DNA of 64,000 nt from an uncultured virus (IMG/VR IMGVR_UViG_3300031627_000893). Taxonomy: Duplodnaviria > Heunggongvirae > Uroviricota > Caudoviricetes. The stretch lies in the IMG/VR virus record IMGVR_UViG_3300031627_000893. One strand, written 5' to 3'. This document shows positions 1,165 to 60,456 of the stretch, piece by piece. Within the stretch, counting starts at the first letter, position 1. Each line of letters opens with the position of its first letter. The position numbers and the translations under genes were made by a program. The notes below the pieces were generated by a model. The model worked only from the letters and a program-made list of their open reading frames with translations, was not told where the DNA came from and did not search any database.

Positions 1165-1557
1165 TTATACCCTTTTGTCGCCTTTTATGAATAAAGCATC
1201 TGGGGCTTTAGAATAGTACCTAAACAATGCTGGACATAGCCAAACATCTAATCCTTCATATCCTTCATCGTCGTTATCGTCGCTAATAAGATCTGTCGCT
1301 AACTTATACCAAGTCCCGCTCATACAATCTTTTTCAACATTTTTTTTCAGATGGAAGTCCCACGCGGGTAAGACGCTGTCCGAGAAAACTGCATTGAAAT
1401 CTCCGTACTCGCCATATAGTTTAGAGCATAGAGTATCGGCTCCGCAGACTAAAGGCTCTTTCTCAAGATTTTTTGAGGAATCATCGAAAACCCATTGGCC
1501 GCTAACCCGATAAGGCGATATTACATATAGTGCGTTCATTAGTTGTTGATCTGACAT
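1165..1557 (-). CDS. DUF6717-like conserved hypothetical protein
   Basis: Motifs ISPY..WVFDD..KEPLV.GAD and WLCPALFRYY; start moved to Met at 1557 because the ATG at 1566 overlaps the -10 box. Confidence 0.7.
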   Translation of the reverse strand: MSDQQLMNALYVISPYRVSGQWVFDDSSKNLEKEPLVCGADTLCSKLYGEYGDFNAVFSDSVLPAWDFHLKKNVEKDCMSGTWYKLATDLISDDNDDEGYEGLDVWLCPALFRYYSKAPDALFIKGDKRV

Positions 1558-1564
1558 AGGGGGC

Positions 1565-1592
1565 ATTATAGGGAAAAGAATTTAATAGTCAA
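1565..1592 (-). promoter_or_regulatory. sigma70-type promoter, likely producing a leaderless mRNA
   Basis: TTGACT (1592-1587), 16 nt, TATAAT (1570-1565); ATG at 1557 lies 7 nt after the -10 box. Confidence 0.75.
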
Positions 1593-1762
1593 GAACTATT
1601 CTCGATTTTCTTTCTGCGTCTTTTATCTAAATCTCTCTGGTTGTACTCCGTCTGTCTTTTCGAGGGCATACTTTCTCTAAGAGCCAGTAGAGCTCTCTCT
1701 CCGTCCTCATCCGTTATCACTTTACGGGGAAAGGATAAACACCCAATGACCATTGTTCTCAT
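1589..1762 (-). CDS. small hypothetical protein (57 aa, not in ORF track)
   Basis: MRTMVIGCLSFPRK...KIENSS*; start overlaps the stop of 1759-2034 (ATGA). Confidence 0.5.
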   Translation of the reverse strand: MRTMVIGCLSFPRKVITDEDGERALLALRESMPSKRQTEYNQRDLDKRRRKKIENSS

Positions 1763-2034
1763 GCAAGTTTCTTCTTCGGTTGCTCGAAAGTGTGTGGATC
1801 TTTTTCGGGTTGCATTTCTGATTTATACTCTGTGATCCACTTGTTTATCTGTCGAACCGCTAACCTAGACCTCATTCTTTCCCTCTTTCGGTAGGACGGG
1901 TTTCCTTCTGCCTCTTGAAGATTATTATTTAAATGACTCAGGATATGTGTCAAGACACAAGAATTAAGCCTCCGCTCCTCATCTGAAAAGTCATAGCTCT
2001 CCTCAATTATCTGTCGGTGAGTTTTCATATGCAT
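1759..2034 (-). CDS. hypothetical protein
   Basis: 91-aa ORF in the gene run. Confidence 0.6.
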   Translation of the reverse strand: MHMKTHRQIIEESYDFSDEERRLNSCVLTHILSHLNNNLQEAEGNPSYRKRERMRSRLAVRQINKWITEYKSEMQPEKDPHTFEQPKKKLA

Positions 2035-2115
2035 ATAGTAACATTAATCATTCCGTATTTATAAAAAACCTCCTCAAACCTTAATAAACCAAACCAATTT
2101 TAAAGTTTAAAAATA

Positions 2116-2180
2116 ACCAAACCAAACCAAACCCCGCCGAGCCTAAGCGGACCCCGCCAAACCAGACCGCACCCTACCTT
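2116..2180 (-). ncRNA. GGY-NN five-nucleotide periodic array, candidate guide RNA for the Cas7/RAMP-like protein
   Basis: Minus strand reads GGT ag GGT gc GGT ct GGT tt GGC gg GGT cc GCT ta GGC tc GGC gg GGT tt GGT tt GGT tt GGT; 12 of 13 units are GGY in exact 5-nt register; intergenic. Confidence 0.75.
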
Positions 2181-2191
2181 ATTTTCGACTA

Positions 2192-2596
2192 CTAAACTAT
2201 CACGCCATCACCTTCACAGCTTTTGCACTTCGGATTAACCACCTGAGTCCCGTATTCGGGGTGGAGTATTCCGCAGTCATCACACCCATGAGTGTCTTTC
2301 CATATTCCATCGGCTTCATCCTCAACCGCTTGTTGCGCTTCCCAAAAAGAATCGATCTTAAATGGGTACTTGAGAGTGATTGGAACTACATCCCAATCTA
2401 CGCCTTCTACAATTGATCCTACTGTAATTCCAACAGTATCACCGTCTACGATTTCTTCCATAATCCAAGCTCCGCAATTCGTATACTTATAAGTATTACG
2501 CTTAACAGCATCGAATGTCGTTTCACTGCATAGACGAGCCTTTAGGAAGTCATCTAAATTATTAACAGTTCTTCCGGTAGCTTTAGTCGTAGACAT
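2192..2596 (-). CDS. hypothetical protein with C-terminal CxxC...CxxC zinc-binding motif
   Basis: CDDC and CKSC near the C-terminus; likely start MSTTKA at 2596. Confidence 0.65.
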   Translation of the reverse strand: MSTTKATGRTVNNLDDFLKARLCSETTFDAVKRNTYKYTNCGAWIMEEIVDGDTVGITVGSIVEGVDWDVVPITLKYPFKIDSFWEAQQAVEDEADGIWKDTHGCDDCGILHPEYGTQVVNPKCKSCEGDGVIV

Positions 2597-2912
2597 TTTC
2601 CCACCTTCTCTGTTGTTCTTGGTACATACAATTCCACACAGCGAAGTACGCATCATGGCGACCAGTCTCCACCACTGAGCTTTTAAAGTTGTCATAATCG
2701 ATATTCAGAACTTTTTCTTTCATTACCTGAGCGACTTCGGCTCTCGAAACTACCGCACGATATCCGTAATCACTAGTCGGAGTGTACATGACCTTTGCGC
2801 GTGGGAAGACGCTATCTATGTCTCCCTCTATCCTGCCTCTCACTAAAAGATGTTCTGGTTTAGACCTATGAGAAACTACGCTCAACATAGAGTCATTCAA
2901 GAAAATCCACAT
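2583..2912 (-). CDS. conserved phage hypothetical protein
   Basis: MWIF..S.V..LLVR.R...DY.YR...IDYDNFK pattern familiar from phage accessory genes. Confidence 0.65.
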   Translation of the reverse strand: MWIFLNDSMLSVVSHRSKPEHLLVRGRIEGDIDSVFPRAKVMYTPTSDYGYRAVVSRAEVAQVMKEKVLNIDYDNFKSSVVETGRHDAYFAVWNCMYQEQQRRWENVYD

Positions 2913-2943
2913 AATAGATCCTTTCTTTAGGGGATTAAAAGTT

Positions 2944-2961
2944 GGGGGGCTTTCGCCCCCC
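2944..2961 (-). terminator. intrinsic terminator or stable hairpin after the Cas7-like gene
   Basis: GGGGGGC-GAAA-GCCCCCC followed by AACTTTT on the minus strand. Confidence 0.75.
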
Positions 2962-2972
2962 GTTGAGTTAGT

Positions 2973-3632
2973 CTAGCCTTGAGTATCGATATCGTACTGA
3001 GTGATAACGAATCTTCCGTATGAAGGCCGGAAATCTCCGACTCCGTTGAACTGACCAGCATCGCTCAAAACCTTGTAGAAGGTTGAGGGAGCAATATATT
3101 CCGGTTGCTGAATAAGAAACTCCATGTCTACCTTCCAGCCTTCTTTAACGGCAGGACGGCAACGATTAACTCCAGCGCGTTGGATAACAACTCGACGCTT
3201 ATCAACGTAATCCCAATCCTTAATGCCCAAGGAAGCGAGACGGGTAAGCCCAATCACGGATGCCTTGTAAAGGTCATGACCAGACTTACGCGGACTACGA
3301 GGATCTTGAACCGACTTAGCAGCAGTCGCTACTGCCATCCGAACATACTCAGTAGGAATGCAAAGTTCGCCCTCGTCGTTTCGCCAAACATACGACTCTA
3401 GGTCATCTGTTTTTTTTGCCTTGCTGTTTTTCGCGGCATTTGATTTAGCCTCGACTGCCTCGCAATTCCACCTATGAAATAGCATATCTGCGACACCCAT
3501 TAATTGTACTTTGACAATATAGGGCCTCTCCATTTCATGTATGTCCTTAGCTCCGTTTGTTGGGGATTCCCCGCCTACCACATCCAAGGCTTTTTTGGAT
3601 GTGCCTCTGTTTACTTTAACTTTAGTCGCCAT
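2973..3632 (-). CDS. stand-alone Cas7/RAMP-superfamily-like protein (Vipr-like)
   Basis: RAMP-like order of motifs: N-terminal strand (YIVKVQLMGVADMLFH), LCIPTEYVRMAV, thumb region (RVVIQRAGVNRCRP), GWKVDMEF strand, C-terminal Gly-rich loop AGQFNGVGDFRPSYGRF; no other cas genes nearby. Confidence 0.75.
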   Translation of the reverse strand: MATKVKVNRGTSKKALDVVGGESPTNGAKDIHEMERPYIVKVQLMGVADMLFHRWNCEAVEAKSNAAKNSKAKKTDDLESYVWRNDEGELCIPTEYVRMAVATAAKSVQDPRSPRKSGHDLYKASVIGLTRLASLGIKDWDYVDKRRVVIQRAGVNRCRPAVKEGWKVDMEFLIQQPEYIAPSTFYKVLSDAGQFNGVGDFRPSYGRFVITQYDIDTQG

Positions 3633-3707
3633 GATTTTAATAATAATATTTAATTTAACTATCTGGATGATTTGTTAATGCACTCACAATAACCTCATCT
3701 GGAAACG

Positions 3708-3735
3708 ATTATATAGAAGATCGACAATATGTCAA
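3708..3735 (-). promoter_or_regulatory. consensus sigma70 promoter of the Cas7-like gene
   Basis: TTGACA (3735-3730), 16 nt, TATAAT (3713-3708). Confidence 0.85.
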
Positions 3736-3743
3736 TACTTTTT

Positions 3744-4136
3744 TTAAAAAACTTTAAATGACCCAGACTGGCAATACATAGCAAAGTCTGTAATAGCTTC
3801 CTTTTTGTTCTTACCGCTGAATACCTCCAGAATTGACTTGTAAGCTATCTTTTCTCCCCTTTGGTACTTTGTTACCTCTTCTAGGTCCATAGGGTTTAAA
3901 GCGGTCTGGAGGGCACGGGCTTCCCTGTCTGGTATATCATCTAGAGCAGACAATAAAGCATCCCCGATACTATAAGCATCTTCTCTGTCTACTGTTTGCC
4001 CATCATTCGAGAAGTAATAATCCAACTCATACTTTCGCTTCCATCCATATTTCTCAGCTAGTCTAAGAGCGTTGCAGTAAGCCCAAGTAGTGAATCTCCA
4101 ATCTTGCCCATTTTCATTTACTAAATCCATCGACAT
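3744..4136 (-). CDS. hypothetical protein
   Basis: ORF; likely start MSMDLVNE at 4136. Confidence 0.6.
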   Translation of the reverse strand: MSMDLVNENGQDWRFTTWAYCNALRLAEKYGWKRKYELDYYFSNDGQTVDREDAYSIGDALLSALDDIPDREARALQTALNPMDLEEVTKYQRGEKIAYKSILEVFSGKNKKEAITDFAMYCQSGSFKVF

Positions 4137-5648: not shown

Positions 5649-5936
5649 TCATTTTATTTCCGAGCTCGGCAATGAATCTCTTAATTCCACCCACTTGTCC
5701 ACGCCCATATCCGCCAACATGTTTTCGATAAAATCTATTCTTGCTAGTTTGTCCATCATAACATTAGGTACGCCATCTACATCAGACCTCGATATAATAG
5801 TCTTACCGTCGTCTATGCCGCCCTGAATTTGATAAGAATTAATGCTGCACTTGTGATCTCCCTGAAGGATAACAAGCTGACTAAAGTAAAGCTCCCTTCT
5901 CGATTCTAAATATTTAGTTAATGTGGTTGGTTCCAT
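5649..5936 (-). CDS. hypothetical protein
   Basis: 95-aa ORF overlapping the end of the sigma factor gene. Confidence 0.55.
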   Translation of the reverse strand: MEPTTLTKYLESRRELYFSQLVILQGDHKCSINSYQIQGGIDDGKTIISRSDVDGVPNVMMDKLARIDFIENMLADMGVDKWVELRDSLPSSEIK

Positions 5937-6762
5937 CGCTTAAAAAGACCATGTTTTTCTCTTTAAATAAAATTCTAAATTTGACTATGGCTGTAGTCTC
6001 GATTTGCCTAATTCTTTCTCTGGTGCATTTGAACTGCTTCCCTATTTCTTCTAAAGTGAGCCTTTCAAAGCCACATAACCCGAACCTATGTCTGATTATA
6101 GTAGCTTCCCTTTTCTTAAAACAAAATAAAACTTCATTTATGACTTCTCTCAAGTTGGAAGTATCGAGAGCAGATGAAGAATTTCCCGCTCCTTCGTCTT
6201 CCATTAAGTCCCCAATTTTCTCGCCGTTTTGATCATCGACGCTCACTGGAGCATCTAAACTAACAGAGGGATTCTTGTGGCCTAAACAAACTTGAACTTG
6301 GACACTGTTAAGGCCAAATTTCTCGCCTATTTCTTCGCTATTTGGAAACCTGCCCTCACTGCCTTTGAAGTTATCCATAAACTCCCAAATTTTCAAGTAA
6401 AGCAAAACTCTATGGTCTGGTATCCTTACCGTCCTAGACTTGTTGCTTATCGCTTTGTAAATCGCTTGTTTAACCCAATGATAAGCATAAGTGGAGAACT
6501 TGTGCCCTCTGTCAATATCAAACTTTTCTACCGCCCTTAATAATCCAATGTTTCCTTCCGAGACTAGGTCATCAAAAGAAAGTATACCGTACGACCTGCC
6601 TTTAGTCACTTGATTGACTATTTTGATGACCAGCCTAATATTGCTTTCTAAAAACCTGTTTCTAGCTTCTATAAATTTTTTCTTCGTTCCACCCTTTTTG
6701 ATGATTGCACATAGCTCAATCTCTTCCTCTCTGGTGAGAAGGTCTGGAAGGTCGCGGTACAT
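5914..6762 (-). CDS. RNA polymerase sigma70-family factor (RpoD/RpoS-like, regions 1.2-4)
   Basis: LLTREEEIEL, NIRLVIKI, DLVSEGNIGLLRAVEKFD..RGHKFSTYAYHWVKQAI, SRTVRIP, LTLEEIG...TRERIRQIE. Confidence 0.95.
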   Translation of the reverse strand: MYRDLPDLLTREEEIELCAIIKKGGTKKKFIEARNRFLESNIRLVIKIVNQVTKGRSYGILSFDDLVSEGNIGLLRAVEKFDIDRGHKFSTYAYHWVKQAIYKAISNKSRTVRIPDHRVLLYLKIWEFMDNFKGSEGRFPNSEEIGEKFGLNSVQVQVCLGHKNPSVSLDAPVSVDDQNGEKIGDLMEDEGAGNSSSALDTSNLREVINEVLFCFKKREATIIRHRFGLCGFERLTLEEIGKQFKCTRERIRQIETTAIVKFRILFKEKNMVFLSDGTNHIN

Positions 6763-7241: not shown

Positions 7242-7695
7242 TATTTAATTCTGATATGATTGCATCTATCTGATTTTCGTACGGGTCGTGAACAATATCT
7301 AAATATTTTTCTCCCCAAACGACTATCCTTATTTCGTTTATTGTTTGAAGCACGGATGACAGCTTAACCCCGTCTGGGATTTTACCATTCATCGATATGC
7401 TTGATTGCCAGTTGTTCATTCTCACCTCAACCTTCAAGAGCTCCTTTTTGTGCGTCTTGTCATTGAAGTAAAAAATTATGTTGGCCTTACTCGCTGTAAG
7501 ATTATCCCCTTGACCCTTCTTCTTTACGACTCTTACTAAGGCTAAATCCTGAGAAACATTATCCGCATTGAATTTACGATAGGATACCAAGTCCCCTGAA
7601 GGAATATAAGCACAGCTTTTCGTAAAGCTGGATTCTGCCCAAAGTATCTCGTGTTGCATCTCTCGAAAGCTACTGAATAAAGGCGTCGATGTCAA
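7132..7695 (-). CDS. hypothetical protein
   Basis: 187-aa ORF; 3' end overlaps the next gene by 110 nt. Confidence 0.55.
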   Translation of the reverse strand: MTSTPLFSSFREMQHEILWAESSFTKSCAYIPSGDLVSYRKFNADNVSQDLALVRVVKKKGQGDNLTASKANIIFYFNDKTHKKELLKVEVRMNNWQSSISMNGKIPDGVKLSSVLQTINEIRIVVWGEKYLDIVHDPYENQIDAIISELNNENSQNRRERSKRTGIPRVPKKLQSKLGEKKVLFKR

Positions 7696-7769
7696 GAGTT
7701 AAATAGGTTTTATTTATTAGAGAGTTACTGACCGAGATGTTATTAAAGTTTTTTAATTAGTTTTAAGCC

Positions 7770-8060
7770 TCACTCCATATTTATGAACATCGGGCCTTTT
7801 TCCCCAAGATACTGAGAAGTACGCAAGGTGTTGTACTCGAACCACTCTATAGCCTCCATATCTTCCATCCCGTCTCTCTCTTGATAGATCTTAATAATCT
7901 TAACAAAATCGTATATTGCTTTAGGTTCAGAGTCCCCAAAAGCTATGCCAACGTAAGCTTCAGCAAGATCTTCGAATAAAACAACATTTTCGAGTTCTGG
8001 ATATTTTTCATGTATATCCTTACGTATCTTTTCGTCGAGTATTTTCCAGTCTGTTGTCAT
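7770..8060 (-). CDS. conserved phage hypothetical protein
   Basis: AYVGI..AIYD..KI...DGM...EAIEWFEYN....YLGE..P.F pattern familiar from aquatic phages. Confidence 0.65.
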   Translation of the reverse strand: MTTDWKILDEKIRKDIHEKYPELENVVLFEDLAEAYVGIAFGDSEPKAIYDFVKIIKIYQERDGMEDMEAIEWFEYNTLRTSQYLGEKGPMFINME

Positions 8061-12675: not shown

Positions 12676-12752
12676 TGGCAGATGAGATGGGACTCGAACC
12701 CATAACCCTCGGTTTAGAAAACCGATGCTCTATCCAATTGAGCTACTCATCC
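12676..12752 (-). tRNA. tRNA-Arg(UCU) with encoded CCA
   Basis: GGATGAG/CTCATCT acceptor stem, D-arm GCTC..GAGC, anticodon arm TCGGT-TTTCTAA-ACCGA, T-loop GGTTCGAGTCC, 3' GCCA. Confidence 0.95.
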
Positions 12753-16317: not shown

Positions 16318-16944
16318 ATGGAGGTTTTAAGCAGTCTTAGATCTAACGTCATTGGTATATCCGGTGTCGCTGGTAGCGGAAAAGATACATTCTATAAGCT
16401 TTTGCTAGAACACTGTAATGCTAGGAATATTAAATGCGCTAGATTCTCTTTAGCGGATAATCTTAAAAAAGATTTAAAACCATTTTGCGTTTCTAATTAC
16501 AAAATAAACCCCCTTAACTGCACGAGAAATGAGAAGGATACATTGAGACCCTTAATGGTATTTCACGGTGCTGCTATGAGGAGAATATCCAATGGGCGTC
16601 ATTGGATTAATAAGTCTCATAAGGAGATGAGCAATAAGAAGTATGAGAACCACTTGAAAGTCATTACAGATATAAGATATAACCAATATGACAAGGATGA
16701 GGTGCATTGGGTAAGGAAGGAGTTGGGGGGAGTTCTTGTTCACATAGGCCAATTTGGAGAATTCAAAAATTCAAAAACTGGAAAATTAGAAAAAGATTTT
16801 TTGTTTCCTGCTAATTTATACGAAGAAGTTTACGACCCTCAAATTAGTAAATTGGCTGATTACAATATCTCTTGGAAGACGGTATCCGATGTGATTGCGT
16901 TGTCTCCTCATATAAGAAAGTTCATGGGATGGATGAGAGAATAG
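16318..16944 (+). CDS. deoxynucleoside monophosphate kinase-like P-loop protein
   Basis: IGISGVAGSGKDT, SLADNLK, R..MVFHG, ITDIRY...E. Confidence 0.85.
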   Translation: MEVLSSLRSNVIGISGVAGSGKDTFYKLLLEHCNARNIKCARFSLADNLKKDLKPFCVSNYKINPLNCTRNEKDTLRPLMVFHGAAMRRISNGRHWINKSHKEMSNKKYENHLKVITDIRYNQYDKDEVHWVRKELGGVLVHIGQFGEFKNSKTGKLEKDFLFPANLYEEVYDPQISKLADYNISWKTVSDVIALSPHIRKFMGWMRE

Positions 16945-17594
16945 AAACACAACTAGAGTTATCTCTTAAAAAAGATAGCATACCTATAGAGAAGAAAACT
17001 AATTACGATGATGATTATGAATTGATATTACGAGTTAGGGACGAAGCTTGTTGTGAGAGTTTTGAGAAGTTAGTGGATAGACATACTGGGATAGTATATA
17101 AAATAATGGGTAAGTACAAAAGGTATATCCAGACCAATGGGCTTGACTTTGAGGAGATAAGAGAGGAAAAACAGTTTTTGCTGTACGAGTCCATACGGTC
17201 TTTTAATCCAGATAAAGGAGTTAAATTTTCTACTTGGGCGGGGAATCAGACCAGATACTTCTGTTTAAACAGAGTGAGAAAAGAAGCACGGAAAATTTTG
17301 GTTCCCGACGAAAAGATTAATTATTTTTTAGACAACACCGAAAGGGAGTCTATAATAGACTTTGAAGAGATAAAGGAGTTGGTTTTTTTTCTCTTATCAA
17401 AACTTAAAGACCCTAGAATGAAAAGGGTGTTTGAGTTAAGATATTTTAGTGGTTCGAGGAAGGTAGTCCCTTTCCATAAAATCGCTAAAGTTATGGAGGT
17501 CGCGCCCCAAACTGTGGTCAACCTTCATAACAAAGCAAAGAAAATGCTAGTGAGGAAAATTAAAACAGATAACCATAAAAGCGAAATACTATGA
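16929..17594 (+). CDS. second sigma70-family factor (divergent, regions 2 and 4)
   Basis: SIRSFNPDKGVKFSTWAGNQTRY; C-terminal HTH FELRYF...FHKIAKVM...QTVVNLH. Confidence 0.88.
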   Translation: MDERIETQLELSLKKDSIPIEKKTNYDDDYELILRVRDEACCESFEKLVDRHTGIVYKIMGKYKRYIQTNGLDFEEIREEKQFLLYESIRSFNPDKGVKFSTWAGNQTRYFCLNRVRKEARKILVPDEKINYFLDNTERESIIDFEEIKELVFFLLSKLKDPRMKRVFELRYFSGSRKVVPFHKIAKVMEVAPQTVVNLHNKAKKMLVRKIKTDNHKSEIL

Positions 17595-46141: not shown

Positions 46142-47093
46142 GACTAGACAAGAAGGTTTAACTTATATCTCGGCTTCTCGAATGAAGACGCTTCAATTGT
46201 GTAGTTGGCAGTATTATGTCAAATATCTTTTGAGAGTCCCTGATACTTCTAATGATGGAGCAAGAAGAGGTAGCGTATGCCACGGAGTCTTTGAACATTT
46301 GCTAAGAGCCAAGCACCTCAAGCATTATAAAAAAGTTTTAAAATCCGGTGAGCTAAAAGGGAGTCCTGTTGTAGACAGATACGTTAAAACTTACCTAAGA
46401 AAAGAGGGAGCTTTGACTGAGGAAAACTACGAAATGTGCGATAATATGATTCAGGTCGGACTCAGGTCAGATTTCTTTGGCGAAGGTGGGAAATTGCTTG
46501 ATCCTGAAATTTATTTTGAAATCAAAGAGAATCAAGATGGAATAGACTATTTTGCATTAGGATACATCGATAAAATCATACTGTACGAGGAACAAAAGAT
46601 TGTTAAAATCGTAGATTACAAATCGAGTAAAAGTAAATTTAGAGGGGAAGAACTTACCAGTAATGTACAGGCTATGATTTATAGTCTAGCGGCGAAGGAA
46701 AGGTGGCCTGATTACGAGCCAGTGGTTGATTTTGTGTTTCTCAGATTCCCCAAAAGCCCAATACAAACCCTCAGGTTTACCGATGAACAATTGAACGGCT
46801 TTAAGCATTTCCTAACTCATTTTTATGGAATACTAAATAATTTTGATGAGAAGATGGGTCATAACAATTTCGCTATAGATGGGGGATTCAAAACGAAGTG
46901 GCTTTGCGGTCCAACAAAAAGTGGATGGGAATGTCCGGTTAAAAACGAGCTAACGTATTATGCCTTAGTAGACAAAAATACTGACAAAATACTAAAGACC
47001 TCTTTTGAGCCAGACATTCCTATAAAGGAAAATACTGTTTTACAAAAAAGGGTGTACAGTGGATGCCCTAAATTTAATTTTCAAGAATATTAA
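46134..47093 (+). CDS. PD-(D/E)XK exonuclease (RecB/AddB/Cas4-like)
   Basis: ISASR...C, GSVCH, GYIDKI...IVDYKS, Q...Y, C-terminal Cys cluster. Confidence 0.85.
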   Translation: MARTRQEGLTYISASRMKTLQLCSWQYYVKYLLRVPDTSNDGARRGSVCHGVFEHLLRAKHLKHYKKVLKSGELKGSPVVDRYVKTYLRKEGALTEENYEMCDNMIQVGLRSDFFGEGGKLLDPEIYFEIKENQDGIDYFALGYIDKIILYEEQKIVKIVDYKSSKSKFRGEELTSNVQAMIYSLAAKERWPDYEPVVDFVFLRFPKSPIQTLRFTDEQLNGFKHFLTHFYGILNNFDEKMGHNNFAIDGGFKTKWLCGPTKSGWECPVKNELTYYALVDKNTDKILKTSFEPDIPIKENTVLQKRVYSGCPKFNFQEY

Positions 47094-47094
47094 T

Positions 47095-47871
47095 ATGGAA
47101 GAAATACTACCGCTTTTTAAGAGCCACTATAGTATAGGCAGAAGCATTTTAAACTTAGAGGAAGCAGACGAGATCAGAGATGATTACCCCGTATCTATCA
47201 TAAGCATATGCAAGGAATACGGTCTAGAAGAAATGTACTTGGTAGACGATTGCATGTCTGGATTCCTTCAGGCTTACATTAATAGCTCCAATAATAAAAT
47301 AAAACTTAATTTCGGCATTAGGATTCTTTTGTGCAACGATATAACCGTCAAGAACGAAGAGGCCAGAAAACAAACCAGTAAGATTATACTGTTCGCGAAA
47401 AATGGGAAAGGTTTCTCTAAGCTCATTAAAATCTATTCTAAAGCAGCGACAGAGGGTAAGTATTACGCTCCGAGAGTCGATAGCAACTTGCTGAAAGAAT
47501 TCTGGAACCCCAAAGACCTGATGCTCTGCGTCCCATTTTATGATTCTTACCTAGAGCTAAACGCTTTTCATCAAGGACTTTCCCTACCTAATCTCGACGA
47601 CTTCGAGCCAACATATTTCTGGGAAGATAATGATTTACCATTTGACACGCCGCTTAAAGATAATGTAATGTCCTACTCACGAATCAGTGGGGAGGCCGTG
47701 CAACAAGTCCAAAGCATCTACTACTATAAAAGGGATGACTTCAAGGCTTACTTAACCTTTAGGTGTATTGCAAATCGAAGCGATCTCTCGACTCCGAGAT
47801 TAAGTCATATGGGTTCTGAGGAGTTTTGTTTTGAGAATTGGCTTAGTAAAAAAGGAGAAAAAATAAAATGA
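47095..47871 (+). CDS. stand-alone PHP domain of DNA polymerase III alpha
   Basis: KSHYSIGRS, LVDDCMSGF, IKLNFGI, LFAKNGKGFSKLIKI.S, YYAPRVD. Confidence 0.85.
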   Translation: MEEILPLFKSHYSIGRSILNLEEADEIRDDYPVSIISICKEYGLEEMYLVDDCMSGFLQAYINSSNNKIKLNFGIRILLCNDITVKNEEARKQTSKIILFAKNGKGFSKLIKIYSKAATEGKYYAPRVDSNLLKEFWNPKDLMLCVPFYDSYLELNAFHQGLSLPNLDDFEPTYFWEDNDLPFDTPLKDNVMSYSRISGEAVQQVQSIYYYKRDDFKAYLTFRCIANRSDLSTPRLSHMGSEEFCFENWLSKKGEKIK

Positions 47872-48245
47872 GTGATCATATCAGCAGGATCTTTAATCCC
47901 AAAAAAGTAGAAAAAGAGTGGGGGTACGAGTTATGGTTGGCAAATAATTCGAGTCACAACTACTGTGGAAAAATTCTTCACGTTAATGAGGGGCATAGAG
48001 GGTCAATGCATTGGCATCTCAAAAAGCATGAAACTTTTTATATCCTAAAAGGGGAAATGCAGTTGGACCTTTTAGATACCGACAAGGGGGAAGTTTATAC
48101 TGAGCATCTCAAGGAAGGAGACTGTTACGAAATTCCAGTAGGACAACCGCATCAAATTATAGCAACCGCAGAGCTAGAGATTATCGAAACTAGCACTTTC
48201 CATATGGACTCAGATAGCTATAGAAGTTGGAGAGGCGAAAAATAA
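47868..48245 (+). CDS. cupin-domain protein (mannose-6-phosphate isomerase-like)
   Basis: VEKEWGYE, SMHWHLKKHETF, IPVGQPHQ, IETST. Confidence 0.8.
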   Translation: MSDHISRIFNPKKVEKEWGYELWLANNSSHNYCGKILHVNEGHRGSMHWHLKKHETFYILKGEMQLDLLDTDKGEVYTEHLKEGDCYEIPVGQPHQIIATAELEIIETSTFHMDSDSYRSWRGEK

Positions 48246-48736
48246 TGACTGACCCTGAAAATTATTGCGCTGTCTGGCTCACTAAATTCGAAGCTCAAAC
48301 GGCTTGTACGATAGGTTGCGAGAGAAGGCTTACAAACAGATACAAAGAGGTAGGAGCAAAAGATTACGTTAAAGAGGTGCAAATGGACTTAGGCGGGTTC
48401 GAGAGAGATATTCAAGCTGCCGCCGCTGAAATGGCATTCGCAAAGGCTAGGAAAATGTATTGGGACTTTAGCGTAAATACATTCAAGAAACCGGATGTAG
48501 CCCATATACAAATAAGACATACTATTAGGTCTTCAGGCAGACTGATTGTGAGACCAGATGACAGCGATGACGAGACTTTCGTCTTAGTTACTGGTGAAAT
48601 ACCTAATTTCACATTAAGGGGACACATCAAGGGGAGAGACGCTAAGCAAGACCAATTCCTAAATAATCCGGGAGGGGGGAAACCTTGCTGGATGGTTCCT
48701 CAAGGCGACTTAAAGCCAATACCTAAACCTAAATGA
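48245..48736 (+). CDS. conserved phage hypothetical protein (possible PD-(D/E)XK-like fold)
   Basis: AAAEMAFAK...W...PDV..IQIR...LIVRP.D. Confidence 0.55.
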   Translation: MTDPENYCAVWLTKFEAQTACTIGCERRLTNRYKEVGAKDYVKEVQMDLGGFERDIQAAAAEMAFAKARKMYWDFSVNTFKKPDVAHIQIRHTIRSSGRLIVRPDDSDDETFVLVTGEIPNFTLRGHIKGRDAKQDQFLNNPGGGKPCWMVPQGDLKPIPKPK

Positions 48737-49371
48737 ACGGACATCTACTCAGATTCGACAGGAAGAGCACATTCGTTTTTATCGATTGCGAAACGCTAAA
48801 TCTATGTCTTAATTCCGTTAACAATCTCCCTTGGCAGGTATCCATGATAAAGAGTGTCGGAGGCAAGAATATAGACCAAAGGGACTTCCTTATAAAATGG
48901 GACACGAAGTTGAAGATTAGCAAAGGCGCAGCTAGGATCACAAAGTTTGACCCCAAGAAGCTGGATAGGTTAGGGAAGCCACCAGAGGAAGTCGTTCCTG
49001 AGATAATAGAATGGCTAGATAAAGCTGATTACGTTATAGGCCACAATATACTCGGCTTCGACATCTATTTAATCAGAGGCATATATAAGTTCGCCAAAAA
49101 AAGCTACAGAAGCGTGGTTCCCAAGGTGATAGATACGTTGTCCATAGCTAGAGGGATAAAGAATAATCTTAAACCAAAAAATATCGAAAATTTTTTAGAG
49201 TTTCAGCTTCAAATGCTTAACATAAGAGTTAAAGGGCAAAAGAACTCTCTCGCTGCTTTAGGGAAACAATACTCTATTGAGCACGACTACGAAAAGCTAC
49301 ACAATGCGATTGTTGATCTGGAACTAAATTTGAAAATTTGGAATAAACTCAAATACGAAATGGAGGTTTAA
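48733..49371 (+). CDS. DEDDh 3'-5' exonuclease (DnaQ-like proofreader)
   Basis: FIDCET, GHNILGFD, IDTL, LHNAIVD. Confidence 0.9.
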   Translation: MNGHLLRFDRKSTFVFIDCETLNLCLNSVNNLPWQVSMIKSVGGKNIDQRDFLIKWDTKLKISKGAARITKFDPKKLDRLGKPPEEVVPEIIEWLDKADYVIGHNILGFDIYLIRGIYKFAKKSYRSVVPKVIDTLSIARGIKNNLKPKNIENFLEFQLQMLNIRVKGQKNSLAALGKQYSIEHDYEKLHNAIVDLELNLKIWNKLKYEMEV

Positions 49372-49372
49372 C

Positions 49373-49759
49373 GTGGAATCAATGGATTTTATATACGATC
49401 TTACTGAAAAAATGCAGGACCAGAATATAGATTATTTTCTGGTATCAGTAAGGGACAACAAAGTAGATGATGTCGTTGATGTTTTTTTTAACGTAAACTC
49501 AGAAAGGACTTACAGAATACTAAAAGATGTCTTTGACCAAAGCTCCATAGAAGTAGGAGATATACTTCAAGATAGCGAGTACGGAGAGTCGGAAGAATTT
49601 ATATTCTCTGGATCGCCTGAAACTATACATATATTTGACAGCGAAGAAACTACTAATGAATTAAATTTTGAATTTGAAATCTTAGAAGACGAGGACGAGG
49701 ATGACGAAAGCAGCGACAGCGAAGAGAAGAAAAACGACGACGACGAAGAAGAAAAGTAA
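49373..49759 (+). CDS. highly acidic hypothetical protein
   Basis: 128-aa ORF with a D/E-rich tail. Confidence 0.6.
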   Translation: MESMDFIYDLTEKMQDQNIDYFLVSVRDNKVDDVVDVFFNVNSERTYRILKDVFDQSSIEVGDILQDSEYGESEEFIFSGSPETIHIFDSEETTNELNFEFEILEDEDEDDESSDSEEKKNDDDEEEK

Positions 49760-52328
49760 GGCCCAGTTTTCTAAAAACTTCAAGCCGTACGATCTCGATC
49801 TTCATGGAGTAAGGCTACCTAGCTTTACTATCGACCCTGCCTTCAAGGAGAAGATTGGGCTTTCGGCTGAATGCAAAAACTTCGATTTTTTGAGGGGCCT
49901 ATGTCTTGAAGGCTTTAGAAAACTTAAACTCAAAAAAGGATCAGAGCTTTATGATACTTACGTAGAGAGAGTCAAGTATGAACTAGATATTCTAAACGAT
50001 CTAGGGTTTACAGATTATATACTCTTAGTGTGGAATGTAGTTAATTATTGCAGAATAAATGATATCCCAGTTGGACCGGGTAGAGGAAGTGCCGCTGGGT
50101 CTCTTGTCCTTTTCCTATGTAACGTAACTAAAATAGACCCTGTTAAGTACGATCTGTTTTTTGAGAGATTCGTATCTAGAGCAAGAGCGAAGAAAAAGGT
50201 AGTCAAAGGGGTAACATACCTAGACGGGTCATTGATGTGCGATGTTGACATAGATATATGCTACTATAACAGGCAAAGGGTAATAGACTACATCCAGAAA
50301 GAATTTGAGAATAGGAGCAGCAAAATTCTTACTCTTTCCACTCTCTCTTCTAAGATCTTAATTAAAGATTGCGGCAAAATAATAGACGCGAAGTCAGAAG
50401 TAGAAATGAACACCGTCTCTTCTATGATACCTAAGGTGTTCGGTAATGTTGCCGATCTGCAAGACGCATACGACAATGTAGATGACTTCAGAGCATGGTG
50501 TAATAAAAATGAATCTGTATTCTCTACTTCCTTAAAGCTAAGAAATTTAATAAGACAAAATGGAGTACATGCCTCCGGTGTACTTTTATCGTATCATCCC
50601 CTAAACGAGACATGTCCTGTACAGCTATCTTCAGATAAAGATATCGTCTCTGGCTACGACATGAACTTCGCTTCCTTAGTTAACGTAAAGTTAGACTTAC
50701 TAGGGCTTAGAAGCGCAACGGTTGTGGACGAAGTCTGTAAGCACGTAGGAATAACAATGGATGATATAGATTTTAATGATCCATTTATTTACCAAAGCCT
50801 ACAGGATTTGAAGACTCCTCATGGCTTATTTCAATTAGAGGCTTTTACAAATTACAGAGTAGTCAGATCTGTGAAGCCCAAAAATCTGGAAGAGCTTAGC
50901 GGGGTGTTGGCTCTCGCTAGACCGGGGGCTTTAGACTTTGTAGACCAATATTCTTCTTATACGGAACATGGGACTTACGACCCAATCCACCCCTACTTCG
51001 ATGATATTTTGGCATCGACAGGCGGAGTCTGCCTCTATCAAGAACAAATGATGAGGATGGCCCACAAAATTGGGTTTACCCTTGATGAAGCAGAAATCCT
51101 GAGACGAATCGTAGGAAAAAAGAAAGTTAAAGAAGTAAAAGAATGGAAACAGAAAATCAAGGATAAGATCAAGGAGAATGACCTAGACGATGGAATAGGA
51201 CAGATACTTTGGAAGGTATTAGAGGACTCCGCGAACTACTCCTTTAATAAGTCTCACTCTATATCTTACGCCGCGCTATCTGCTTGTACCATTTATTTGA
51301 AGTTTAAGTATCCCAAGGAGTTCTTCTTGGCCTTGTTAAGGATGACTCGACACGAGAGTAATCCCATCTCTGAGATATCAAAAACGACTAGAGAATTTCA
51401 AGCGTTCGGCATAAAGCTTCTCCCTCCTCATTTGGTGAAATCGACAATGGATTTTCATATCGAAGGAGATAACATAAGATTTGGTTTGCTGTCTATTAAA
51501 GGTATCAGCGACAAAACAATAGAAAAAATTAACGAGTTCAAAGGCGAGTTCGATAGCAAATTCGAAGTATTCCAAGCTTCTGAAGACGCTAAACTAAACC
51601 TTGGCACTCTTTGCGCTTTAATACAGGCTGGAGCATTAGATAACGAATTCGATCATTCCAGAAGCAGGATGGTCCTCGAATGCCAACTATGGAAGCTCCT
51701 CACCACTAGAGAAAAAAGATATGCTATGGAATTCGCTAATGAGTATAAGCACGATCTTATAGAGATACTAAAAAATCTTAGGGAATTTAAAGACGAAAAA
51801 GGTAAAGTAGTAATTAAGGACTCAAGATACGAAACGATAAAGAAGAAATACCTTCCTTACTTAGACATCTACAGCATGAATAAGAAGAGCGAAAGGTTCG
51901 CTAATTGGTATTACGAGAAAACAGTTTTAGGATATTCCCCGAACCATACCCTTTCAGACATATTCTCTAACCATATATCTAATCTTATTAAAATAAACGC
52001 CTCCCAAGAAGTCCCCATCAGAAGGCAAGTAAGAATAGTCGGCGTTATAAACGACCTCTTTAGAGGAAGGTCGCGAAAAAACGACAACGAATACATCAGG
52101 CTTACGGTTGAAGATGAAACTAGTGAAATTACGTGCTTGATGTTCGAAAAAGCCATCGAGACCTGTCTACACACTAACGAAAAAATGCCAGAGAAAGATG
52201 ATGTCGTAATCATAAACGGAACTAAATCTGAGGATGCTATTTTTATTAATTCAATTGGCATACAAAGCAATAAGATATACATGAGACTTTCAGATGTAGA
52301 AAGAGATCTTAATAAGAATAAAAAATGA
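49701..52328 (+). CDS. dnaE: DNA polymerase III alpha catalytic subunit lacking the PHP domain
   Basis: GPGRGSAAGSLV, LFFERF, DVDID, HASGV, KLDLLGL, YQEQMM, YSFNKSHS, C-terminal OB-fold. Confidence 0.95.
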   Translation: MTKAATAKRRKTTTTKKKSKAQFSKNFKPYDLDLHGVRLPSFTIDPAFKEKIGLSAECKNFDFLRGLCLEGFRKLKLKKGSELYDTYVERVKYELDILNDLGFTDYILLVWNVVNYCRINDIPVGPGRGSAAGSLVLFLCNVTKIDPVKYDLFFERFVSRARAKKKVVKGVTYLDGSLMCDVDIDICYYNRQRVIDYIQKEFENRSSKILTLSTLSSKILIKDCGKIIDAKSEVEMNTVSSMIPKVFGNVADLQDAYDNVDDFRAWCNKNESVFSTSLKLRNLIRQNGVHASGVLLSYHPLNETCPVQLSSDKDIVSGYDMNFASLVNVKLDLLGLRSATVVDEVCKHVGITMDDIDFNDPFIYQSLQDLKTPHGLFQLEAFTNYRVVRSVKPKNLEELSGVLALARPGALDFVDQYSSYTEHGTYDPIHPYFDDILASTGGVCLYQEQMMRMAHKIGFTLDEAEILRRIVGKKKVKEVKEWKQKIKDKIKENDLDDGIGQILWKVLEDSANYSFNKSHSISYAALSACTIYLKFKYPKEFFLALLRMTRHESNPISEISKTTREFQAFGIKLLPPHLVKSTMDFHIEGDNIRFGLLSIKGISDKTIEKINEFKGEFDSKFEVFQASEDAKLNLGTLCALIQAGALDNEFDHSRSRMVLECQLWKLLTTREKRYAMEFANEYKHDLIEILKNLREFKDEKGKVVIKDSRYETIKKKYLPYLDIYSMNKKSERFANWYYEKTVLGYSPNHTLSDIFSNHISNLIKINASQEVPIRRQVRIVGVINDLFRGRSRKNDNEYIRLTVEDETSEITCLMFEKAIETCLHTNEKMPEKDDVVIINGTKSEDAIFINSIGIQSNKIYMRLSDVERDLNKNKK

Positions 52329-58332: not shown

Positions 58333-60456
58333 TTACGCCTCATGAACATCGTCTACTGTATAGAATATTTTAACACCAATAAGTTTTGCGTCTTCCGCTG
58401 CTGTGTCTCCTGGGTCCCCTGCGACTCTTGCAATATCGAAATAACAGATTTCCCCTACCGCAGGAGAACCCGCAATAGTGACAGCACTACTAACCGATGT
58501 TACATGTAAGTCTTTTGCTGTTCCTAAATTATCATCGGCTACTACTACTTCTGTGCCAAAAGCAGTATTCAGACTGTTATTGTTGGCAAGTGCCACACCC
58601 GCTAGTCCCCAAACTACGGGATCTGAATCTGTTGCTTCTGATGTCCAGTAAACTTGGAATGTAACTGTACCTTCATTCCAGAACGAAGGCATCGCTATTG
58701 AAAATTGTGCATGTTCTTCTGAACCTTGATCAAAGTCTAATGTATAAAGATCAGGCCCTGTGTTGCCACCTGAGTCTAGTGTCGTTATTGCAGCACAACC
58801 TGCTGTAGAAGTAGGGTACATCGCTGCTGCCGGAACCCATATCGACTGTTTTCCTATCGTATCGTTAGAGAGAACAGAGCTTGTAGCTGTTATTCCTCCC
58901 CCCGCCAACAGCGTAGCAACATCAGCAAAAGCTTCCTTTTTGGCGGTCCCTGAAGCTCCGCCATCTAAAAACAACACATAGTCACCATTGGCAATAGTTG
59001 CTTCTGCTGCCTCGGTCAGATCGACGTTAAAGGTAGTACTAGATAAGTCCAGCAAGGTTCCAGCGGAATAACTCGACCCACCACCACCAGCACCTGAGGG
59101 TCCGGTTGGACCAGCAGCCCCAGCGGGTCCAGCCGAACCAGCGGGTCCAGTTGAACCTGCGGAACCTGTAGCACCAGAAGGTCCAGTCGAACCAGCGGGG
59201 CCAGTCGAACCAGCCGAACCAGCGGGTCCAGTCGAACCAGCGGGTCCAGCGGAGCCCGTAGCACCAGTAGGACCACTTGAACCGGGTACACCCGCAGGAC
59301 CAGCGGGACCGGCAGGGCCACCAGCAGGACCAGCGGAGCCAGAAGGACCAGCCGCACCCGCAGGACCAGCCGGACCAGCCGGACCAGCAGGACCACCAGC
59401 AGGACCACTAGCACCGGAAGGCCCAGTCGCCCCAATGCTACCAGCAGAACCTGTAGCTCCAGAAGGCCCAGCCGAACCCGCAGGGCCAGTCGAACCCGCA
59501 GGACCAGCAGGACCAAGGTCACCAGCAGGACCAGCGGAACCAGAAGGTCCAGTCGAACCAGCGGGACCAGCAGGACCAGCGGGACCACCAGCGGGACCAC
59601 TAGCACCGGAAGGCCCAGTCGCCCCAATGCTACCAGCAGAACCTGTAGCTCCAGAAGGCCCAGCCGAACCCGCAGGGCCAGTCGAACCCGCAGGACCAGC
59701 AGGACCAGTCGAACCAGCAGGACCCGCAGGACCAGCCGGACCACCAGCAGGGCCACTAGCACCAGAGGGACCAGTAGAACCCGCAGCACCAGAGGGACCA
59801 GTAGAACCCGCAGGACCCGCAGGACCAGCAACAGTCGATTCTGCTCCAGAGGGGCCAATTGGGCCAACAGGACCAACAGGCCCCGCCATAGCAAAAGTGA
59901 GCACTCCCGTTTCCCCATTCGGGATTATTGAAGTAAAATCACTATGAGATTTCGCAACAGGACTTATGTTGATTTTCTTATAAGCAGAACCTGATTCGTT
60001 CCCTGTTGTTATGCTAAACAAAGCAAATTTAGAAGGATCGGATTGCTTGTAAAATTTTAATCTTCCCCTGTCGCTAGAGCCCGAAACATCGTCAAGGCTG
60101 TCTATCCAAGCTGAAACATCAATTGAGTATGCATCGTAATGATTCACATATAATTTTGAAGTAGAAGCAACGCTCCCCGCGTTAAATCTTAATGTCCCTA
60201 AAGTGGGATTCGCATCATCAGTACTACTGGAGTACTTAAAGCTAAAGGTGTCCCCTCCTTTCCCGCCAATAGGGCCAGTAGCCCCAGCCGATCCTTGTGG
60301 GCCAGTAGAACCCGCAGGGCCAGAGTTTCCCGCAGGACCAGCGGGGCCAGTAGAACCCGCAGGACCAGCGGGGCCGACTACTCCCTGAATACCTTGGAAA
60401 GCTTGATTCTGTCTTCCTTCAACGTTGCCAGTTGGCATTATTACTTTTCTAGCCAT
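58333..60456 (-). CDS. collagen-like tail fibre protein
   Basis: Two Gly-X-Y tracts (GPA/GST/GPS) flanking a globular domain, plus a C-terminal beta-rich domain. Confidence 0.88.
59402..59707. repeat. 114-bp direct repeat inside the collagen tract (59402-59515 and 59594-59707)
   Basis: Identical ggaccactagcaccggaagg...gcaggacca copies offset by 192 bp. Confidence 0.85.

Follow-up and report, generated by a model that had tools for sequence, protein, structure and literature searches.

In the 64,000-nucleotide stretch of DNA analyzed here (the window), a 65-base array of NNGGY pentamers very probably encodes the one vrRNA of a VIPR locus, carried by a large marine phage. Membership of the VIPR class is supported by a predicted Vipr homologue encoded on the same strand ∼800 bases upstream of the array and by the near-obligate linkage of the relatives of this protein to arrays of the same kind. 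An earlier note on this DNA, made from the letters alone, had read the variable dinucleotides of the array as a "hidden guide," and this proposal was right in kind, given the Vipr homologue on the strand and the array linkage in 22 of 23 relatives' loci.

VIPR (Viral Interference Programmable Repeat) is a phage-borne, CRISPR-like form of DNA silencing that was first described in 2026 preprints, in which a locus encodes Vipr, a stand-alone RAMP protein, together with vrRNAs of 9–16 YNNGG repeats followed by a tail and, usually, an accessory gene, vap (10.64898/2026.04.26.720920). Vipr is described as having an RRM core, a G-loop and a thumb, and the vap product as a DNA-binding protein, a nuclease or a helicase. 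The NN of the vrRNA are reported to pair with double-stranded DNA with a 1-nt skip, the skips falling mostly on wobble positions, and the same preprint reports systems with a single vrRNA and frequent internal degeneracy in working vrRNAs, and describes no self-targets of vrRNAs in the published systems (10.64898/2026.04.26.720920). In the VIPR papers the threshold for a target is a match at 80% or more of the NN. In the structural account there is one Vipr protomer per repeat, the GGY is held by His-17, Asp-177, Arg-138, Trp-178 and Arg-179, and the Vipr thumb, as in Class 1 CRISPR, breaks the guide-target duplex periodically (10.64898/2026.04.26.720927). Codon-periodic targeting is further reported to block mutational escape (10.64898/2026.10.15.759431). 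The system of Escherichia phage SUSP1, of type II, is described as typical, and the tail of the SUSP1 clade as a pseudoknot.

The array and its genomic setting

Read on the minus strand from 2180 to 2116, the array is AAGGT AGGGT GCGGT CTGGT TTGGC GGGGT CCGCT TAGGC TCGGC GGGGT TTGGT TTGGT TTGGT, that is, 13 pentamers in a single register, 12 of which carry GGY in phase. The odd one is GCT, as the earlier note had it. When the window was shuffled 100 times under a first-order Markov model, the best register reached 4/13 in 79 cases and 5/13 in 21, and a scan of both strands found no second NNGGY array elsewhere in the 64 kb. The position is intergenic, between one minus-strand gene, with its stop at 2192, and the next, which starts at 2034. 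Under a GGYNN parse the dinucleotides are (AA) AG GC CT TT GG CC TA TC GG TT TT TT (TA); the list drawn up in the earlier note agrees with this series and omits the two flanking dinucleotides, AA ahead of the first GGT and TA behind the last one. TT accounts for four of the guide dinucleotides, and the only identical units are the last three, which read TTGGT on the minus strand and correspond to the threefold GGTTT seen earlier at the 3′ end. Among the first ten units the NN are unlike TT at 15 of 20 sites, and the GG are altered at 1 of 20. A plain pentanucleotide microsatellite was rejected on this unequal distribution, the even spread of divergence over unit positions not being seen.

Joined directly, the dinucleotides do contain the inverted repeat AGGCC-TTT-GGCCT that had been pointed out, with a stem of at least 5 also arising in 628 of 20000 unit-order shuffles and in 391 of 20000 random 18-mers. 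It has no role in the 1-nt-skip geometry and is taken as a coincidence, because the symmetry is gone once one base is skipped between dinucleotides. No Rfam family was found at the array (the sole match in the window is a tRNA elsewhere), the RNA fold of the array region was not above shuffles (z = −0.41; other strand, z = −0.17), and no DNA similarity to GenBank phages was found for positions 1500–3000 of the window. Downstream of the tract, six out-of-register pentamers occupy 2097–2068, four of the six being NNGGT and mostly TTGGT, and the GCTG-N-CAGC hairpin tail of the clade is absent, the fold being ordinary as given above. The motif TATAAATA, which we take to be the T4 late-promoter consensus, stands at 2063–2056 on the minus strand, ∼50 bases downstream of the array and ∼25 bases upstream of the ATG of a 91-aa ORF (2034–1759). 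A strong GAGGAGG at 2075–2069 has no start codon at Shine-Dalgarno distance.

Table 1. Features of the predicted VIPR locus, with positions in the window and the basis of each call
Feature	Position	Strand	Basis
Putative sigma-70-like promoter upstream of vipr	3708..3735	minus	TTGACA 3735-3730, 16-nt spacer, TATAAT 3713-3708; read by eye
vipr (predicted), 219 aa	2973..3632	minus	phmmer against PDB, AlphaFold model and Foldseek
Terminator-like G+C-rich hairpin and T-rich stretch	2944..2961	minus	terminator scan of 1500-3000, 7 G-C pairs
ORF of 109 aa, no known family	2583..2912	minus	Pfam, PHROG, PADLOC: none
Cys-rich ORF of 134 aa (HGCDDCG, CKTCKGEG conserved)	2192..2596	minus	Pfam, PHROG, PADLOC: none
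Predicted vrRNA repeat tract, 13 GGY/NN units	2116..2180	minus	register scan, shuffles
3′ region of tract	2056..2115	minus	TATTTTT, A/U-rich stretch, out-of-register pentamers, T-run, TATAAATA

The product of the predicted vipr gene, a 219-aa protein, gave a single match at E ≤ 1 when compared with the PDB by phmmer, namely chain 36pp_D, "SUSP1 Vipr protein" (E = 8.8e-6). The alignment pairs residues 138–210 with residues 117–187 of 36pp_D and thus covers the C-terminal third only, the N-terminal contacts His-17, Lys-33 and Glu-71/Met-72 of SUSP1 Vipr falling outside the aligned stretch. Within it, the thumb arginine is kept (CRP versus YRP of SUSP1 Vipr, Arg-138), and the G-loop reads GVGDFRP versus GVGDWRP, with Asp-177 and Arg-179 kept and Trp-178 changed to phenylalanine; the corresponding Asp-200, Phe-201 and Arg-202 do not vary among 28 aligned relatives. 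An AlphaFold model built from the relatives' alignment (pLDDT 80.7) gave 116 Foldseek matches at E ≤ 0.001, the top ones being Cas7-type subunits of type VII and type III (Csm) complexes, down to E 7e-7, in a library that is older than the VIPR structures. From its sequence and modeled fold, the protein is predicted to be a Vipr-type RAMP (Cas7-like), expected to take one GGYNN unit per protomer. The gene is intact, and relatives at 98% and 73% identity exist. The family as a whole comprises 4212 clusters at E ≤ 1e-5, and among the best 120 of these any name given is "hypothetical protein."

The terminator-like hairpin sits just after vipr, and two ORFs lie between it and the array. No recognizable vap gene is present at the locus, both intervening ORFs being without a Pfam, PHROG or PADLOC family, and neither has a relative in the 23 loci with Vipr homologues. 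The 109-aa ORF is a vap candidate by position only. The 134-aa family has 53 relatives at E ≤ 0.001 and was found in 70 IMG/VR loci, and an array lies within 1.5 kb in only 2 of 69 of these (the window's own relative excluded), and on this count the Cys-rich protein was rejected as vap or as a dedicated VIPR partner; judged by its homologues, it is a phage family without known function.

All genes from position 1 to ∼15360 of the window are on the minus strand. By its gene content the window is that of a large phage, with two sigma factors, ribonucleotide reductase, a family-B polymerase, UvsX, a helicase-primase pair, many sugar-nucleotide enzymes and a collagen-like tail fiber. A sister strain, an IMG/VR contig of 47.5 kb (L001), is rated 21% complete by CheckV, and the phage is estimated at roughly 200 kb. 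In at least 10 metagenome runs from seawater or marine sources, the contigs contain no less than half of the words sampled from positions 1700–3800. No CRISPR-like repeat occurs among the tandem repeats of the window, and no cas family was found among the 59 ORFs scanned. Several other features of the window were recorded. The family-B DNA polymerase is apparently split (47059–52328, plus strand), a 270-aa ORF corresponding to positions 64–269 of phrog_405 and an 875-aa ORF to positions 322–1088, with ∼1.8 kb of other ORFs between the halves. The tail-fiber gene (58333–60456, minus strand) holds a collagen-like tract with 79 copies of a 9-base unit and higher-order repeats of 75 and 192 bases. 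The sigma-70-family genes lie at 5914–6762 (minus) and 16872–17594 (plus), one of them having regions 2, 3 and 4, and a tRNA-Arg(TCT) gene (12676–12752) adjoins an HNH endonuclease gene.

Vipr relatives, their arrays and strain variation

Relatives of the 219-aa protein were found in 23 IMG/VR loci, one of which belongs to a near-identical strain of the window and 22 of which encode proteins at 50–62% identity. Linkage was counted over a set of 23 made up of these 22 relatives, with the window's own strain left out, and Phage DSL-LC04. An NNGGY array lies on the vipr strand in 22 of the 23 loci and on the opposite strand in none of the 23. Together these loci hold 45 distinct arrays with 789 units, in which the NN have an entropy of 1.98 bits at each position, every one of the 16 dinucleotides occurs, and GG is followed by C or T in 89% of units. 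Because the array caller selects on GG, the conservation of GG is partly built in, and independent figures are those for NN and Y alone. The earlier note had held that NN as invariant as GGY in orthologous arrays would speak against a guide; the NN of the relatives proved to be near-random.

The closest named phage by tblastn is DSL-LC04 (OR003939.1), whose Vipr homologue is 58% identical and is annotated as a "helix-turn-helix transcriptional regulator." This gene (3010–3627 of the extracted locus, L218) is preceded by three arrays within 320 bases, and a long-range stem, CTTAGTGGGGC ... GCCCCACTAAG, encloses one of the three. The locus of the window resembles those of DSL-LC04 and the IMG/VR relatives in its Vipr, 50–62% identical, and in having NNGGY arrays on the vipr strand, and differs from them in that the relatives carry 2–7 arrays, most of which lie immediately upstream of vipr and many of which have a GCTG-N-CAGC tail. 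Among the relatives it is the internal vrRNAs that end in this hairpin, whereas the vipr-proximal vrRNA runs straight into a T-run, as the tract of the window does (GGTTTGGC-TTTTTAAC there, GGTTTGGTTATTTTTAAAC in the window). Hence the missing tail does not exclude VIPR membership, the vipr-proximal vrRNAs of the relatives being equally tail-less.

The sister strain, 98% identical to the window, keeps every NN of the array. Its array differs from that of the window in unit 3 (GGT to GAT), in unit 9 (GGC to GGT) and in having one TTGGT fewer, the copy number of TTGGT thus varying between the two strains. Contigs from two further seawater runs showed no listed difference where the array was covered. 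The 3′ TT TT TT units, their number being strain-dependent, probably serve as filler or as a spacer ahead of the terminator. Assembled contigs of two seawater runs end or begin in or beside the array (window 2110–2168), those of run X2 at 2168 and 2151 and those of run X3 at 2133 and 2110; these breaks may stem from strain variation or from the repeat. One contig from an RNA library spans 2976–3126 inside vipr, and such cover is no proof of transcription. No RNA contig reaches the array, and run X4 lacks cover over 2055–2267, two gaps that carry no information.

Comparison with known systems and alternative readings

The locus shares with SUSP1-type VIPR its presence in a phage, a predicted Vipr-type RAMP with the GGY-contact residues, and a GGY/NN array on the same strand, and it shares with the published vrRNAs a length of 13 units (range 9–16), free NN with fixed GGY, and the lack of a self-target. 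It departs from the SUSP1 type in having one vrRNA, which lies downstream of vipr behind the hairpin and two unrelated ORFs and has a T-run end and TT filler 3′ units in place of a pseudoknot or hairpin tail, as well as in having no recognizable vap in the window and a Vipr sequence match confined to the C-terminal third. The wider relationship is with the Class 1 CRISPR backbone, the Cas7/Csm3 filament on crRNA, with which the RAMP fold (in the model) and one protomer per fixed RNA step are held in common. In contrast to Class 1 CRISPR, the VIPR step is 5 nt, with 2 bases paired and 3 sequestered, the genome itself encodes the guide, which is not acquired, and the window is without CRISPR repeats or other cas genes.

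Several features count against the VIPR reading. Among them are the separation of the array from vipr by a hairpin and two ORFs, the arrays of the relatives being mostly directly upstream, and the GCT unit of the window, with an additional broken GAT unit in the sister strain. Others are the lack of the hairpin tail that most vrRNAs of the clade bear, the four TT dinucleotides, the absence of a recognizable vap gene, the confinement of the SUSP1 Vipr match to the C-terminal third, and target searches that gave nothing above chance. The separation and the broken units would also fit an unlikely alternative, in which the array is a decaying or orphaned vrRNA that was moved away from vipr by a rearrangement and is eroding into a GGTTT microsatellite. 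Such decay could further account for the loss of one TTGGT in the sister strain, the threefold TT units and the out-of-register GGTTT remnants downstream of them, the absence of the canonical tail, the terminator-like nature of the intervening hairpin, and the target searches of the window, IMG/VR, metagenomes and genomes, which gave no match above chance. It is at odds with the pattern of change in the ten 5′ units, where the many altered NN and the single altered GG fit purifying selection on GG over free decay of TTGGT, and with a vipr gene that is intact and conserved, both in its 98% and 73% relatives and across the 4212 clusters. Nor do the broken units and the missing tail set this array apart, working vrRNAs being often internally degenerate in the accounts of the VIPR papers and the vipr-proximal vrRNAs of the relatives being tail-less too.

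It is far less probable still that the array is not VIPR at all and is instead a TRAP-like phased site for some other multimeric protein that binds RNA or DNA, a series of two-tetrad G-quadruplexes, or a slipped-strand pentanucleotide microsatellite affecting a downstream promoter. The strict 5-nt phasing, with 5 nt per subunit, recalls the TRAP sites of Bacillus trp leaders, in which a (G/U)AG triplet and a 2-nt spacer are repeated ∼11 times and are read by TRAP (MtrB). The array likewise repeats a conserved triplet and a 2-nt spacer; unlike TRAP sites, its triplet is GGY, its reader would be a RAMP filament, and its information lies in the spacers and not in the triplets. A TRAP-type site was rejected on the triplets, GGY and not (G/U)AG, and on the lack of a TRAP (MtrB) protein among the 59 ORFs scanned. 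For the other variants, GG every 5 nt could give G2 quadruplexes, the TTGGT copy number is unlike in the two strains, and TATAAATA lies 50 bases downstream as a candidate for the affected promoter. Against all of these stand the Vipr homologue in the locus and the same-strand arrays in 22 of 23 relatives' loci, while the pyrimidine after GG (89%) and the free NN are the VIPR consensus and are unneeded for a G-quadruplex, and the RNA fold is ordinary. A TRAP-like or other phased protein site, a G-quadruplex run, an opposite-strand Rho site and a cluster of primase sites were dropped after the Vipr homologue had been found.

Predicted guide function, target search and wider occurrence

Returning to the array as a vrRNA gene, the guide activity of the predicted vrRNA would, by analogy, follow the published kind. 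Its transcript would be coated by Vipr protomers, one per pentamer, which would flip out and hold each GGY and so present the NN. The NN of the filament would then pair with double-stranded DNA as NNxNNx..., each third base being skipped, and binding would block transcription of the bound gene, which would most likely be in a competing mobile element and possibly in the host. Specificity would reside in the nine diverse dinucleotides. Two of the details suggested earlier from the letters alone have counterparts in the preprints: the skipping of one target base between dinucleotides is the published vrRNA rule (10.64898/2026.04.26.720920), and the coverage of codon positions 1 and 2, which ignores synonymous escape mutations, matches the reported wobble skips and block on escape (10.64898/2026.04.26.720920; 10.64898/2026.10.15.759431).

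The earlier note had also seen no target in the window and had proposed a search with gaps of 0–3 nt between dinucleotides. In the window, such a scan upheld the first point, the best matches of 12–13/18 being no better than those of shuffled guides; the search itself failed to single out a spacing, as no gap size beat the shuffled controls and the observed best was reached by 183–200 of 200 shuffled-order controls. The guide was also compared with the 23 loci of the Vipr relatives (118,641 bases), where the best matches were 14/20 and 18/28. Shuffled guides matched these scores in 196 and 165 of 200 cases and hence do as well, which gives no indication of anti-VIPR targeting in these loci.

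The exact 9-unit pattern with a 1-nt skip was found at no locus in IMG/VR, where two half-guides of 8 units each matched 5 and 6 loci with a best of 19/28. In metagenome contigs the exact pattern occurs at 18 loci, 15 of which are one gene family, and in GTDB genomes at 5 loci, 2 of which are of the same family. Counted independently, the 9-unit matches are no more numerous than the ∼17 expected by chance, an expectation from uniform-composition arithmetic over the 596 Gb of the GTDB genomes and two strands. The only match above 80%, the top one of 23/28 (L224/L232), was rejected as low-complexity GGGCCC/TTT repeat DNA. In Paenibacillus sp. Soil766 (L239, L241), AGCGCCCTTTT.GGGCCTTATTCAGG is present in three copies of a repeated element; this element looks like a dispersed palindromic repeat and a chance match to the guide pattern.

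The recurrent family is a ∼140-aa protein whose function is not known, from marine Verrucomicrobia MAGs and many metagenome contigs. The site encodes the conserved motif HPDYGPNSALYVQCGY on the opposite strand, and all skipped bases fall on wobble positions. Nine consecutive units match perfectly and the flanking units fail, giving 20–22/28 over 14 units, which is under the 80% of the VIPR papers. Within the class of one of the matching genomes the site is present in 2 of 301 genomes, both already known. The idea that the single VIPR guide of the phage is directed against a chromosomal gene in a marine Verrucomicrobia host, and not against a rival mobile element, is therefore doubtful, and the match is only a lead, as its flanks mismatch, the count is not above chance, and so few of the genomes carry the site. 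If true, it would give a host for an uncultured phage and the first case of VIPR host takeover.

Arrays of this kind are widespread. When IMG/VR was scanned for eight GG spaced at period 5, at least 127 loci were returned (L090–L216), most with diverse NNGGC/T arrays; among the matches listed, the longest array (L130) has 141 units and keeps GG in 134, a few loci are poly-G or simple microsatellites, and several loci are at contig ends. A different arrangement was observed in an IMG/VR contig reached via a homologue of the 134-aa protein (L009). There, at 440–1100, ∼620 non-coding bases keep a single 5-nt register, with GG in phase in 87 of 147 pentamers, and the same region is found in L217 at ∼7290–7960. 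GGTAC marks (usually GGCGGTAC) recur in this tract, mostly at steps of 45, 50, 55 and 60 bases, as if many vrRNAs were set end to end without tails. Two genes upstream, a 267-aa ORF has SUSP1 Vipr as its top PDB match (E = 0.28) and no BLAST similarity to the Vipr of the window, and the contig may represent a different VIPR type or array architecture.

The Vipr clade of the window is very large in metagenomes, as the number of its clusters indicates. With NNGGY arrays in most of at least 127 IMG/VR loci and Vipr clusters named "hypothetical protein," annotation pipelines overlook a common phage system. The guide logic of an RNA class known only since 2026 was recoverable from the sequence alone. 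The locus itself adds an uncultured marine large-phage example of VIPR with an odd layout, a single tail-less vrRNA behind two unrelated genes, and its target, if found, would name the competitor or the host of the phage.
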